Shown piece after piece: positions 29,101-35,100 of a stretch of 64,000 bases of DNA (within the stretch, counting starts at the first letter, position 1; each line of letters begins with the position of its first letter). Position numbers: made by a program. Source of the DNA: Escherichia coli O157:H7 (GTDB lineage: Bacteria > Pseudomonadota > Gammaproteobacteria > Enterobacterales > Enterobacteriaceae). Location: NCBI RefSeq assembly GCF_013167455.1, contig NZ_CP038328.1; one strand, 5' to 3'.

Positions 29101-32100
29101 GCGCGCGATCTCGGTGCCAGCAAGTTACAGACTTTTATCCGCATCATTATTCCACTGACGATGCCGGGGATTATTGCCGGATGTCTGCTGGTGATGCTGC
29201 CAGCGATGGGCCTGTTCTATGTGTCCGACCTGATGGGCGGTGCGAAAAACCTGCTGATCGGTAACGTCATCAAGGTACAGTTCCTCAATATTCGTGACTG
29301 GCCGTTTGGTGCAGCCACCAGCATTACGCTGACTATCGTAATGGGCCTGATGTTGCTGGTTTACTGGCGCGCTTCTCGTCTGCTGAATAAGAAGGCAACA
29401 GAAATAGATAATTAGTGCTTTATATTCAAAAGGTTAATAGGAAATTTGGCATGCTTTTTACTGTCTAGTAAACAGCATGCCTCTATCCATAAAATCAAAC
29501 AGTTGCAATCTAATTTTGGAGAACGTTTTTTCTTCTCCCTTTTAGCAAATCGCTATAAAAAAACAACAAATGGTATAAAAATGAGCAATCCTAATCCATG
29601 CATGACGGACTGGAGAAAGTATTCGCAAAAGTTAAAATCAACAGTCTGTTGGTTTTGAGATATAACTCTCTTTTCTAATATTGACACCTTGGCTTTGCTG
29701 GTTGTTAAAATTAGCTTGTTGATTAGTAGTATGGATAGAACTTACTCTGTTATTTATTTCTAAAAATGGAATTTATCAATGCTTCCTACATCGCAATTAC
29801 GACCGACCGGGACATTCTGCTCCTATTCCGCTGAAACATCAGCAGACATCAAAAGCGAAATCACACCAATTCAGATAGAAGAAGCGCGGGCCAGTGGTCG
29901 TTTATATATCAAAGATTGTGATATTGAGTATCTGCCACAGTTACCAAACGAAATAACATCAGTTACAATCGAAAACTGCAACAACCTGACAACCCTTACA
30001 GGATTGCCGGTTAATACACAAAACCTCTCCGTCATTAACTGTGAAAAATTACAAATCACAGACATGCCATCAACCGTAAAAAATCTACATATTGAATTAA
30101 CTGATTCACCATTTATACATTTCATATCTGAAGGCATCGAGTGCCTGACGGTTTGCCACTGCTATATATCTGGAGTGCCAGAGAGTGTCCGCTACCTTGA
30201 AATAAAAGGTAGCGCCACAGACAGCATAAAAAATGTTCCAAACGGGTTATCATCTCTCAGCATCAATAGCTATAACCCGGAGAATCAGGCCAGAATTGAC
30301 AACCTGATATCACCGTCACTGAAGACGCTATCGCTGACTGGATGTAGCAATATTATACTGCCGGAGAAACTTCCGGAGAGTGTGACATCGGTAACCATTC
30401 ATGCGGAGCAGAAAACCACGTGGAACATCGGTGTTGAAGGGATGCCTGATGGGCTGGATCTTGATTTACAAAATGTACTACTCTCTCCAGATGTAGTTAA
30501 AGCAAAAAACATCACCTTTCAGGGCAACGCTCTGGATGTGGCCTTACACTTTCGCGAGGGAGACATTGTCTATGGACTATCTTCACCCAGAGAAAAACTT
30601 GTCAACAGCATTAAACTAGTTAACGACTTTTCCAAAAAAGATATTATAACTCAGAATACGTTAACAAACGCAGTATGGGACCCCAGAACACCTCGCAAAT
30701 ATAAGCAAGATCCACTTATCAAAAGAGCATTAAATGAACACGAAAGAGGAATAAAATTTAAACAACACTTAAAGAATCACAATAATTATAATGTTACCAT
30801 GGCCGACCTTTCCGTATACAATCGCGACAAATTATGGGCAAAAACAAGCAAGGCCGGCCTAGAGTTTCAGACATTAACACGCAATAAAACGGTTATTTTT
30901 TGTGCGGATGAGCTTGTCAACTCACTCAAACTCATAGCTAACAAGTCAGAGGGCTATGGCCAGAGTATTACCGCCAGCGAATTACGATGGATTTACCGTA
31001 ATAAAGACAACAACCAAATAATGAAAAACATAAAATTTTATCTACATGGCAAAGAGATACCAGCAGAAAGAATATTAGATACACCAGAATGGAAAGACTA
31101 TCGACCAAAATACTCTGGTTCCACATATAAATATTCTTAATGATACCAACTTATAACGGAATAGCATAAAAACACTTTTCATGGAGCAAAGGAGAAAACA
31201 ATGCCATTTTCAATCAAAAACAGATTTTCAAGTTCACAAGTACATTACCCGGAAATATCCGGTCCCATAAAAGACAAGCCAGCGTCAAAGAACTGCATAC
31301 TTACATCAACAACATGTAATGTAGATAGCTATACAGTGTACCAAAAAAAAGCCTGTAGTTTTGACATGCGCCCACCCGGCGCAGGAGAAAGAACCCCAAA
31401 ACTAAAACTCTCAGTTACTGAGATGACATGGCTATCTAAAACTATAGAAACAGAGATACACAACACAAAAGAATAGCAACCACTTACCAGAGAACACAAA
31501 AAGCCACAGACCCGAAACACCTGACTGCAAGCAACCACCTCCACAGGAGGTGGTTTTACCATGAACTTCCTGTGTACTGACTTGTGTTCATAATAATATT
31601 TTTGTGTTTAAACTCAATAAAGTCACAAAAATGATTGTAATCATGCAATGTAGTAAAATTAAAATATTTGACCCTGTACACGATTCTGTGTAAATGCCTT
31701 TTCTCAGAAGTGACCGTCCAGGCGGTCACCGAACTCGATAATAAAGCGGCTCATTGCCATACGCCAGTCCCGCAGTGGCATCGTCCATTTCTGTGAAGCC
31801 GCCTGGATTGCCAGCCACACGACCTTTTTCACTGAGTCATCCGTCGGGAACACCTTGCGTTTTTTGATGGCATGCCGGATTACGCTGTTCAGCGACTCGA
31901 TGGCGTTGGTTGTGTAGATGACTAGACTGGCCCCCTGAATCTCCAGACAACCAGTATCACTTAAATAAGTGATAGTCTTAATACTAGTTTTTAGACTAGT
32001 CATTGGAGAACAGATGATTGATGTCTTAGGGCCGGAGAAACGCAGACGGCGTACCACACAGGAAAAGATCGCAATTGTTCAGCAGAGCTTTGAACCGGGG

Positions 32101-35100
32101 ATGACGGTCTCCCTCGTTGCCCGGCAACATGGTGTAGCAGCCAGCCAGTTATTTCTCTGGCGTAAGCAATACTAGGAAGGAAGTCTTACTGCTGTCGCCG
32201 CCGGAGAACAGGTTGTTCCTGCCTCTGAACTTGCTGCCGCCATGAAGCAGATTAAAGAACTCCAGCGCCTGCTCGGCAAGAAAACGATGGAAAATGAACT
32301 CCTCAAAGAAGCCGTTGAATATGGACGGGCAAAAAAGTGGATAGCGCACGCGCCCTTATTGCCCGGGGATGGGGAGTAAGCTTAGTCAGCCGTTGTCTCC
32401 GGGTGTCGCGTGCGCAGTTGTACGTCATTCTCAGACGAACCGATGACTGGATGGATGGCCGCCGCAGTCGTCACACTGATGATACGGATGTGCTTCTCCG
32501 TATACACCATGTTATCGGAGAGCTGCCCACGTATGGTTATCGTCGGGTATGGGCGCTGCTTCGCAGACAGGCAGAACTTGATGGTATGCCTGCGATCAAT
32601 GCCAAACGTGTTTACCGGATCATGCGCCAGAATGCGCTGTTGCTTGAGCGAAAACCTACTGTACCGCCATCGAAACGGGCACATACAGGCAGAGTGGCCG
32701 TGAAAGAAAGCAATCAGCGATGGTGCTCTGACGGGTTCGAGTTCTGCTGTGATAACGGAGAGAGACTGCGTGTCACGTTCGCGCTGGACTGCTGTGATCG
32801 TGAGGCACTGCACTGGGCGGTGACTACCGGCGGCTTCAACAGTGAAACAGTACAGGACGTCATGCTGGGAGCGGTGGAACGCCGCTTCGGCAACGATCTT
32901 CCGTCGTCTCCAGTGGAGTGGCTGACGGATAATGGTTCATGCTACCGGGCTAATGAAACACGCCAGTTCGCCCGGATGTTGGGACTTGAACCGAAGAACA
33001 CGGCGGTGCGGAGTCCGGAGAGTAACGGAATAGCAGAGAACTTCGTGAAAACGATAAAGCGTGACTACATCAGTATCATGCCCAAACCAGACGGGTTAAC
33101 GGCAGCAAAGAACCTTGCAGAGGCGTTCGAGCATTATAACGAATGGCATCCGCATAGTGCGCTGGGTTATCGCTCGCCACGGGAATATCTGCGGCAGCGG
33201 GCTTGTAATGGGTTAAGTGATAACAGATGTCTGGAAATATAGGGGCAAATCCAGATGGATTTATCGTAATAAAGACAACAGCCAAATAATGAAAAACATA
33301 AAATTTTATCTGCATGGCAAAGAGATACCAGCAGAAAGAATATTAGATACACCAGAGTGGAAAGACTACCGTCCAAAATACTCCGGTTCCACATATAAAT
33401 ATTCTTAATGATAGCAAAAAATATATTTTCGATATAATCAATGTTATGATTAAAGAGTATTTCATCAGGGCAGGTAAAAACAGAGTAAATCAGCAAAAGA
33501 AGCTGATCTTCAGCGATACTGACACTAACTGACGGTTTAAGCGGTCGTATGAAGCAGCAGCTTTCCGACGGACTGCCATGCGGATCGTTTACCTTTTGGG
33601 CTATTCCGCCCGTCATCAAGCGGCTCACGAGTACTGAGTTTATCAGGATGATATTGCTGACAATGGTAATTCGTTGACCGATGTGTACTTCACTACATAT
33701 CGGTCAACACCGTACTGCCGTGCAACATCTCCAAGATGTAGCATCGTTTTTACCAGAGGAGGCAGGACATAGATTGTAAAAAAACTATTTCGATGCATTT
33801 ACCATTGAGATATTTTCCTTCATACCAAAAGTTCTATCAATTATCGCAAGTGGTTCAACAGGTGCGGTCTTATCTATAACCCAACCACTCTCTGTAACAC
33901 TTCCTCGTGTGATATATTTTGCCTTTACTTTAACAACTATTAGATAATGCTCACGACTAAACCGATCAGCAACGCTAAGATCCGATGTGTATTCAGGCAA
34001 TATTCTTCCAATACGTACCTGCTGTTGTGCCATATATTCATCTGGTGCTTTTACATTTGGATTTGAATCAGGAAGCCCTCCAGCAGTTTTATATTCAACG
34101 ATATTTTCAGCTTGAATACCGGTTGTGCCGCGACACAATATGATGTCTGAATCGGACAGTTCTATGTGCCCCTCCTTAATTTTCGAATAAATTTGTTTAA
34201 TACTATGTTCTGGAGTTGGTACTATTTCAGAAGATAAAGCAGGCAACGTGTCTTCAAGCACCGGAGAATCATCGTATATATCCAACAAATCCTCATCATA
34301 CCCAATATCTCCTTCTCTTAACTGAGAATACGGTTTATCTATGTATCTAATAACTCCCCCACCATGAAGACCTTCTGATTTATAAAATGTACCATCAGCG
34401 TCACGAAAGAAATAAACATTAACCTGTTTGTTATTTATAGAATACCTACCTGAATATAATTCCGAATTTGGCTCCTTAGTTAAATCTACTGATTCCCCCT
34501 TGTAGACTATTTTATTTGGTGTCTCTGAAGATATGGGGTTAAAGGATTCTATATATCTATAAAAACCACCGCCAACTTTCTCATAATACCCATACTTAGA
34601 AGAGTTAAGATCTACTGCACTATATCTATTCCCCCCACGATCCTGTTTCATTTCTAATATTTTAGATTGTTTTTCGTTATATATAAAGTCATTACCATCA
34701 ATTGACTCAATTACAGAATAGAAATTAGCATTATTACTCGGATGATAAATAATATTATCATTAATGTTTTTTTCTATATGCTTCAAAGCCTCATATTTTA
34801 TCTGCAGCGAACGGCTATGTAAGTCAGAGCGAGTGCCTGGAACAAAGTCCATTCCAATACGTACAGCCCCCTGAATATAATCACAGATATTGCTAGATTC
34901 TTTTACTATAGCACTATGTAAAATGCTACTTACACCAGACAATGCATTATAACCAGGTACAGCTCCCATCGCCATATTCCAAATTGTACCTAAAAAATGT
35001 AACACAGCTCTCCCATCAGGAGAAAGAGAAGACTTATCACGATGATTTGTACTATCATTAATATCGATACTTAACTCAATCAATCCACTTAAGCCTTCTT

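Follow-up and report, generated by a model that had tools for sequence, protein, structure and literature searches.

A single amber codon at the only Dcm site of IS2 in a probably immobile copy at the effector end of the Sp6 prophage of Escherichia coli O157:H7

The closest described relative of the element considered here is IS2A of E. coli K-12 (insC1/insD1), which is 1331 bp long, carries orfA and orfB in 0/−1 phases joined by an A6G slippery site, and encodes HTH_Tnp_1 and rve domains with a DDE triad at D240/D306/E342. IS2 ends are imperfect inverted repeats of 42 bp on the left (IRL) and 41 bp on the right (IRR) (PMC3299598). In OrfA the DNA-binding domain covers residues 13–60, a leucine-zipper-like region covers residues 70–103 and the dimerisation region has been placed at 58–105 or 73–100; mutations in the binding or dimerisation regions abolish binding, the A6G frameshift site lies at codons 107–108, and E342 is catalytic (PMC3219604). 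For the mutation itself, the nearest parallel is the set of lacI amber hotspots (Coulondre, Miller, Farabaugh and Gilbert 1978), located at the second C of CCAGG and over-represented approximately tenfold (review PMC12606429). Pseudogenised IS2 or IS2-like copies with an identical TAG at orfA codon 54, at other insertion sites and in other haplotypes, were found on pFORC64.3, the pINV plasmid of Shigella boydii NCTC 9850 and pUTAK-18-1, while an IS2 pseudogene of strain cq9 has its stop at codon 24 (Q24*), which is not a Dcm site.

The copy analysed here lies within a window of 64 kb (the whole stretch of O157:H7 DNA that was analysed), in which no other IS2 copy was found. The features of the locus, in window coordinates, are as follows.

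31668–31922, minus strand: left flank, the surviving 3' part of a transposase gene resembling that of IS1414 (IS256 family) and truncated at the IS2 end
31923–33253, plus strand: IS2 element, 1331 bp, annotated in the Sakai genome as an IS2 repeat_region
31923–31964, plus strand: IRL, 42 bp, with G at IS2 position 32
32014–32175, plus strand: truncated orfA, 53 codons and TAG (ECs_1565 in Sakai), keeping most of the HTH_Tnp_1 region and nothing else
32172–32176, plus strand: mutated Dcm site, CTAGG in place of the CCAGG of intact IS2, with the amber created by T at 32173
32176–32379, plus strand: rest of the orfA frame, open up to the normal TAA at 32377–32379, with translation from the orfA start lost
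32331–32337, plus strand: A6G programmed −1 frameshift motif, intact
32337–33242, plus strand: orfB, 301 codons, open, encoding an rve domain with the triad D240/D306/E342
33213–33253, plus strand: IRR, 41 bp, identical to that of K-12 IS2A
33254–33417, plus strand: right flank, fragment from the 3' end of an effector gene resembling espK/gogB, directly abutting IS2

By length, ends, reading frames and domains the element is an IS2 of the IS2 group, IS3 family. Its nucleotide identity was 99.47 % to K-12 IS2A (99.5 % when rounded) and 99.70 % to the copy on plasmid pEB3 (strain B7A), the nearest intact IS2 found and the reference used for calling private changes. Read directly, IRL and IRR matched the K-12 and pEB3 copies, the G at IRL position 32 being a variant also present in intact IS2 copies, and the promoter and ribosome-binding region 5' of orfA was unchanged. 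The copy differs from K-12 IS2A in the amber at orfA codon 54 and in three private orfB missense changes, and from a simple IS2 insertion in having no 5 bp target-site duplication: the five bases to the left are ATGAC and those to the right are GATGG. The two flanks are unrelated sequences, the left remnant matching the IS1414 of plasmid NZ_CP059918.1 at 91.7 % identity and the right fragment matching the espK 3' end at 30986–31149 at 95.7 % identity. The absent duplication suggests that a deletion beside the element, or recombination, took place later, and is no argument against identification as IS2; it is a record of older rearrangement at the locus.

The orfA gene starts with ATG at 32014–32016 and runs for 53 sense codons to a TAG at 32173–32175, where K-12 IS2A has CAG (Gln54), a C>T change at IS2 position 251. 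This agrees exactly, in coordinates and in the normal codon, with a preliminary description of the locus. The 53-residue product matched HTH_Tnp_1 (E=7e-15) but ends within the DNA-binding domain of residues 13–60 and lacks the dimerisation region. Because translation stops at codon 54, before it reaches the frameshift site, the copy can produce neither complete OrfA nor OrfAB transposase, unlike an autonomous IS2, which encodes OrfAB in full. The expectation that the copy is probably transposition-defective unless complemented is thus supported, and the population data below agree with it. A restart of translation from the in-frame ATG at 32242 was considered and rejected, as no Shine-Dalgarno-like sequence precedes it and the product would be without the DNA-binding domain. 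The preliminary description had also called downstream orfA and orfB otherwise intact, which holds for the frames (the rest of orfA, the A6G motif and open orfB, with an rve match of E=1e-18) but not for the orfB sequence, in which three private missense changes were found relative to the pEB3 IS2: H137Y (32421), A216T (32658) and S343N (33040) in OrfAB numbering, the last adjoining catalytic E342. All four private changes of this copy are transitions and all alter protein, with one nonsense, three missense and no synonymous changes. The missense changes would have accumulated under relaxed selection, and the copy as a whole appears functionally dead.

The changed base is the internal cytosine of CCAGG. 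Only one CCWGG occurs in the whole of IS2, at positions 250–254 with ancestral context taCCAGGaa, and of the 38 transitions by which orfA or orfB could gain a stop a single one, that at codon 54, falls in this Dcm site. The host lineage encodes Dcm: dcm is reported to be syntenic in every E. coli (PMC4659465), dcm–vsr was detected at ≥80 % query coverage in 5358 of the 5426 E. coli genomes, and within O157 both dcm and vsr are annotated in O157:H7 strain LSU61 and dcm in strain Al Ain. The site was presumably methylated when the mutation arose, and deamination of 5-methylcytosine is the most likely origin of the C>T change. The likeness to the lacI hotspots extends to the CAG>TAG change, its position at the second C of CCAGG, the Dcm/Vsr host and the recurrence described below. 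The lacI hotspots, however, come from a laboratory mutant collection, whereas the IS2 amber arose in nature, has become fixed and lies in a mobile element, and its enrichment estimate is rough.

To follow the allele among genomes, complete E. coli records were searched with a TAG-specific 45-mer unable to seed on a CAG copy. It was found at 309 places in 305 records, only eight of the places being on plasmid records, while a 45-mer for the left junction was found at 303 places in 299 records. Approximately 299 of the 305 TAG records, belonging to O157:H7, O55:H7 and O145:H28, have the TAG at the same prophage Sp6 junction, and the IS2 was 100 % identical in 60 records among the matches listed. 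Strain 644-PT8 contains two TAG copies together with two junction copies; because the junction is also doubled, this duplicate is a segmental duplication and not a transposition. There was no sign of movement of this copy, every testable duplicate being a segmental duplication. Three candidates for the TAG at a new site, from a search with the exact 53-residue product, were rejected: one gene call was ended by the contig end and reads CAG (L012), a second contig-end gene call stops one base before the site (L013), and a third, joined to sequence similar to the end of a Nextera transposon, is apparently an adapter chimera (L011).

The Sakai chromosome has one IS2 place, this copy alone, and plasmid pO157 has none, so that Sakai has no source of IS2 transposase acting in trans. 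IS2 copies are very few in O157:H7 genomes generally. In 86-24, PV15-279 and other O157:H7 strains a second IS2 place was found, without the TAG 45-mer and without the Sp6 junction, and transposase may be supplied in trans in these strains. As IEE-promoted IS excision in O157 requires an active transposase, it is plausible that the defective IS2 stabilizes the local arrangement, as the preliminary description had suggested. The locus is nevertheless not frozen: in O145 and in one further genome this IS2 is interrupted by an IS629-like insertion.

We consider it very probable that this is a pseudogenised IS2, fixed in the O157:H7/O55:H7/O145:H28 lineage at the effector end of Sp6, immobile, and with an amber derived from deamination at a Dcm site. 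Under this model, 5-methylcytosine at the internal C of taCCAGGaa would have deaminated spontaneously, converting codon 54 from CAG (Gln) to amber and ending translation 53 codons in, before A6G, so that both the OrfA regulator and the OrfAB transposase would be lost. The ends remain intact, yet typical O157:H7 genomes would offer no other IS2 as a transposase source. Having no OrfAB of its own and no other IS2 in the typical O157:H7 genome, the copy would be immobile and would be inherited vertically at the effector-gene end of the prophage.

The same TAG occurs in IS2 copies adjacent to traL on IncF plasmids, in S. boydii pINV and in an IS2-like element of pUTAK-18-1, a 94 % identical IS2 relative being among the carriers. 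This recurrence bears on the main alternative, which we regard as unlikely, that the mutation was an ordinary random transition whose Dcm position is coincidental and that the other TAG copies derive from one TAG-bearing IS2, spread with the help of trans-supplied transposase or through recombination among IS2 copies. All TAG copies from IncF plasmids, S. boydii, pUTAK and L029 share G274, as a single origin would predict, and the IncF traL-adjacent and S. boydii pINV copies could descend from one TAG-bearing ancestor instead of separate events; an intact C251/G274 IS2 exists in S. dysenteriae. The O157 TAG copy, in contrast, has C274, giving at least two TAG backgrounds. Moreover, pJNE23-011 has the same insertion as pUTAK-18-1 in a backbone that is ~99 % identical but with CAG, so the TAG of pUTAK-18-1 arose in place. 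From these haplotypes and insertions, the codon-54 TAG appears to have arisen independently in several IS2 copies. The prior chance of 1 in 38 that a single nonsense transition would fall in the sole Dcm site likewise speaks against coincidence.

Nonsense transitions also occur at non-Dcm sites, as in cq9 and in an O111 remnant with a stop at OrfAB residue 120, in keeping with a random origin. The relative frequency was gauged with a control search by BLAST of 37 concatenated mutant 45-mers, in which alignments ran across segments and hits were therefore grouped by query range. Across the E. coli genome set, three independent events at the Dcm site compare with approximately 12 hit categories over the 37 other sites, a roughly tenfold excess based on small counts and partly resolved categories. 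Four of the ~12 categories were inspected closely, and one of these, 417 G>A in TW11681, was not inactivating. Against the hotspot, the mirror change on the other strand, the synonymous G253A, was found in two records only. A scan of GTDB representative genomes returned only two contaminant-like contigs. Metagenome copies of IS2 had C at position 251 in 122 of 122 cases among the matches listed; the lack of T there is on the side of the random reading, but the result neither supports nor refutes a tenfold hotspot. Overall, a Dcm hotspot probably explains the independent recurrence of the same stop in other IS2 copies.

A second alternative is that the truncated copy has been kept as useful, either because the 53-residue HTH peptide attaches to the ends of IS2 and keeps incoming copies repressed or because the element provides a promoter for the neighbouring effector genes. 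Retention of most of the HTH_Tnp_1 match, the unchanged region upstream of orfA and the low number of IS2 copies in O157:H7 would fit such a role. The stop, however, falls inside the binding domain and removes the dimerisation region, where mutations abolish binding; the orfB missense changes look like decay, and the IS629-like insertion breaks the element further in O145. Complete identity among the 60 records is expected from recent clonal descent and is silent on selection. This alternative is accordingly very improbable. That the T reflects a mistake in sequencing or assembly, over a true CAG, is next to negligible, as the TAG 45-mer is present in 305 independently assembled complete genome records, which also makes the read-support check suggested earlier moot, the 53-residue product is recorded in 3125 blocks of an assembly index, and the stop is annotated in both Sakai (as a 53-codon 'IS2 transposase') and RefSeq EDL933.

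The favoured reading therefore remains that of an ordinary dead IS2 copy in an O157:H7 prophage. The dead copy as such is already known, being flagged in the Sakai annotation and in RefSeq, where the EDL933 copy is a pseudogene with 'programmed frameshift; internal stop', the flag also given to the pFORC64.3 and cq9 copies. No papers on this copy were found in the literature on IS2 with O157 or Sakai, on IS2 with Dcm or under the locus tags. What is new relative to the existing annotation is that the codon-54 amber sits at the sole Dcm site of IS2. Taken alone the copy carries little weight, given how common defective IS elements are and that this one has been annotated; it does provide a stable lineage marker at the Sp6 effector locus for O157:H7, O55:H7 and O145:H28, and a clear instance from nature of an amber mutation at a Dcm site.

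More broadly, and tentatively, the lone Dcm site on an early in-frame orfA CAG could be a weak point of IS2, at which host methylation repeatedly yields amber-null, non-autonomous copies in E. coli and Shigella. We hold this to be a real possibility that falls somewhat short of likely; no description of such a weak point was found in the searched literature. If true, host methylation would act as a slow, site-specific inactivator of IS2, and supE/glnV amber-suppressor hosts, by inserting Gln, would give back exactly the wild-type product from such alleles. If the hotspot is general, cytosine methylation would contribute to IS2 decay, and the reading would predict which of the IS2 pseudogenes are suppressible in supE laboratory strains.

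The single IS2 element in the window carries an amber codon early in orfA. The preliminary description had placed the orfA start, its 53 codons and the TAG, in place of the usual CAG of IS2, at positions that were found to be correct:

31923-33253, plus strand: IS2 element, 1331 bp
32014-32175, plus strand: orfA, with ATG at 32014, 53 codons and TAG at 32173-32175
32377-32379, plus strand: usual orfA TAA, to which the frame past the stop is open
32331-32337, plus strand: A6G frameshift motif, intact
32337-33242, plus strand: orfB, open frame of 301 codons
Left flank of IS2: last ~250 bp of an IS1414-like element
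33254-33417, right flank of IS2: 164-bp 3' fragment, 95.7% identical to the espK 3' end (30986-31149)
Local order: espK, espO1-1, nleB pseudogene, IS1414 remnant, IS2, gogB/espK-like fragment, espN, espX7

Base-for-base alignment with K-12 IS2A (NC_000913.3 381260-382590) gave seven differing positions, including position 251, where C>T converts orfA codon 54 from CAG (Gln) to TAG. The differences at positions 32, 606 and 900 are common to intact copies and are ordinary polymorphisms. Relative to the closest intact IS2 found, the pEB3 copy of strain B7A, four changes were private to the window copy, namely Q54* and, in the numbering of the frameshift transposase OrfAB, H137Y, A216T and S343N; all four are transitions that alter the protein. 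The earlier statement that the copy is otherwise intact thus holds for the remaining orfA frame, the A6G motif and the orfB frame, but not for the three private missense changes in orfB. S343 adjoins the catalytic residue E342; for A341, the neighbour of E342 on its opposite side, published mutagenesis showed that substitutions affected binding or activity.

Published work on IS2 (PMC3219604, PMC3299598) assigns a DNA-binding helix plus helix-turn-helix to OrfAB residues 13-60, a leucine-zipper-like oligomerisation motif to residues 70-103, with dimerisation mapped to 58-105, and the catalytic site to residues 236-398, with D240, D306 and E342; OrfA is a repressor that works at the promoter adjacent to the left inverted repeat (IRL), and -1 frameshifting at A6G yields OrfAB. 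The codon-54 stop lies inside the DNA-binding domain, long before translation would reach the slippery site (codons 107-108). This copy can therefore produce neither OrfA nor OrfAB, which supports the proposal that it is transposition-defective. The 53-residue product retains a match to HTH_Tnp_1 (E=7e-15) and is without the dimerisation region. The amber suppressor supE/glnV inserts Gln at UAG, so a supE host would restore the exact wild-type residue. Both inverted repeats are intact, and in principle the copy would be mobilisable by IS2 transposase supplied in trans. The Sakai annotation has ECs_1564 as a separate entry beside ECs_1565, a 162-bp "IS2 transposase", and RefSeq labels the EDL933 copy a pseudogene ("programmed frameshift; internal stop"); the copy is an ordinary IS pseudogene that existing annotation already records.

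The distribution of the stop was determined with a 45-mer centred on the T, for which a CAG copy is unable to seed a megablast hit. This probe matched 305 records in 309 places among 5426 complete E. coli genomes, and the T at codon 54 is not an error. Over 3.5 kb, the region matches many E. coli O157:H7 chromosomes with 100% identity, Sakai and EDL933 among them. Identity to Sakai over the prophage part of the window is 98.99%, so the window derives from a strain related to Sakai, and Sakai is not its source. A second 45-mer, spanning the left junction (IS1414 remnant to IRL), matched 299 records in 303 places, in O157:H7, O55:H7 and O145:H28. Each search gave two places in four records, and one such record, 644-PT8, was identifiable in both lists; because its junction is doubled along with the TAG, the extra copy indicates segmental duplication, not transposition. 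The O145 copy has all seven O157 differences from K-12, from which it follows that Q54* and the three missense changes in orfB predate the sharing of the locus among these serotypes. The 187-kb O145 RM9154-C1 record NZ_CP031350.1 carries potA, potB, espK and the Sp6 locus; despite its plasmid label, it looks like part of the chromosome.

New contexts were sought with the exact 53-residue product and the exact OrfB variant, and only the Sp6 context was returned, with few exceptions; these were gene calls cut by contig ends and one adapter-chimera-like contig. This chimera-like contig, from a draft assembly (JZFX01000191.1, locus coordinates 1-192), joins IS2 to sequence ending …TGTGTATACGAGACAG, a near-match to the Nextera transposon end, and on this ground was rejected as a new insertion site and regarded as an assembly artefact.

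The element lies in the lambda-like prophage Sp6, at the end nearer potB. No 5-bp target-site duplication was found around it (left 31918-31922, ATGAC; right 33254-33258, GATGG). Its flanks, one an IS1414 remnant and the other an espK-like fragment, are unrelated, and the two findings together point to adjacent deletion after insertion or to IS-mediated recombination. The copy thus sits at a deletion or recombination joint, which we infer formed, most simply, at a time when IS2 transposase could still be supplied. A second espK-like gene was apparently truncated at the IS2 boundary, where it lost its 5' portion; espK itself lies 2 kb upstream of this look-alike, which RefSeq names a GogB fragment. 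Sakai ECs_1563, an 'outer membrane pore protein' (window 33167-33628, minus strand), ends within IS2, whose right end holds its last ~29 codons; it is not called in RefSeq EDL933 and is likely to be spurious or a hybrid ORF. The Sp6 tail genes end at two 'phage tail assembly protein' genes, ECs_1558 and ECs_1559, which we take to be equivalents of lambda K and I, with espX7 directly after them (Sakai ECs_1558 to ECs_1560; window ~37777-40700 and further). The annotation lists no J-like gene for host specificity or tail fibres, which suggests that Sp6 is defective at the espX7 end.

A single IS2 place was detected in Sakai, EDL933 and most O157:H7 chromosomes, and no IS2-like DNA was found on the Sakai plasmid pO157. 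Strains 86-24, PV15-279, Rafaela_II, 7.1_Anguil, ECP19-598, E32511 and O55:H7 USDA5905 had a second IS2-like place. This second place has neither the TAG 45-mer nor the Sp6 junction in the 86-24 NADC assemblies, PV15-279, Rafaela_II, 7.1_Anguil and ECP19-598, and the TAG copy is still single in such strains (86-24, PV15-279, Rafaela_II and others). Loss of transposition had also been expected to stabilise the local arrangement. In O157, the IS-excision enhancer (IEE) needs an active transposase to promote excision and deletions at IS3-family elements (bioRxiv 10.1101/2023.06.07.543989), and a transposase-null IS2 without a partner copy should therefore escape both this process and IS2-IS2 recombination. 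The same junction in 299 genomes fits and supports the idea, although shared ancestry of close relatives alone gives the same pattern. The locus still changes by other routes, such as insertion of a 1311-bp IS629-like element at IS2 position ~431 in O145 RM9154 and AP024921, 96% identical to the pO157 IS629 and 100% identical between the two records:

NZ_CP031350.1 (O145 RM9154-C1), locus coordinates 4355-5665: IS629-like element nested in the same IS2 copy
AP024921.1, locus coordinates 6341-7651: IS629-like element nested in the same IS2 copy

The same TAG was also found outside this locus: in three IncF plasmids with IS2 beside traL (pFORC64.3, pMFDS1001074 and pZ1323PEC0012-2), in the S. 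boydii NCTC 9850 virulence plasmid with IS2 beside ospB, in pUTAK-18-1 and two sister plasmids, which carry an IS2 relative of 94% identity, and in another two plasmids with a fragment of 93% identity. IS2 position 274 is C in the O157 copy and G in the other TAG copies, and S. dysenteriae has an intact copy that combines C251 with G274. Plasmid pJNE23-011 is ~99% identical to pUTAK-18-1 through the shared insertion and flank, yet has CAG, so the TAG of pUTAK-18-1 arose in place. Taken together, these sequence comparisons support at least three independent origins of the TAG.

Intact IS2 reads taCCAGGaa at the stop position, and the mutated base is the internal cytosine of CCAGG, which is the base methylated by Dcm in its CCWGG site. 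CCWGG occurs exactly once in IS2, and only one of the 38 stop-creating single transitions in orfA/orfB, the codon-54 change, falls within it. Both dcm and vsr were present in 5358 of the 5426 E. coli genomes, including O157:H7 strains with both annotated intact (for dcm in E. coli see also PMC4659465). CAG>TAG via the second C of CCAGG is a classical 5-methylcytosine deamination hotspot, ~tenfold over-represented among lacI ambers (Coulondre et al. 1978, summarised in PMC12606429). The codon-54 C>T would accordingly have arisen by deamination of 5-methylcytosine at the sole Dcm site of IS2, and we regard this origin as the best explanation, unproven but reasonably likely.

As a control for chance recurrence, the other 37 transitions able to create a stop were searched as mutant 45-mers in the same genome set, giving 159 records in about a dozen groups, four of which were inspected. 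Q24* in strain cq9 was a true null, as was an O111 remnant with its stop at OrfAB residue 120, and another stop lay in a decayed fragment on pUMNK88_Ent. The 417 G>A change in TW11681 was rejected as an inactivating stop, since it lies after the frameshift site. It belongs to a 95.9%-identical IS2 relative (NZ_CP035855.1 564983-566211) with TGG>TAG at orfA codon 109, present in up to eight chromosomal places as counted from the pooled control search; OrfA is 13 residues shorter, OrfAB is unaffected and RefSeq annotates the element as intact. With small counts and partly resolved groups, there were roughly 0.3-0.4 events per site at non-Dcm sites vs 3 at the Dcm site, for which the Poisson probability of at least three events is ~0.004-0.014. 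The hotspot claim is tempered, because the synonymous mirror change G253A occurs in only two records and position 251 is C in 122 of 122 metagenome IS2 copies among the matches listed.

No description of a stop on the sole Dcm site of IS2, or of its recurrence there, was found in the searched literature. The recurrence would represent a textbook mechanism applied to IS2, and is of modest interest.
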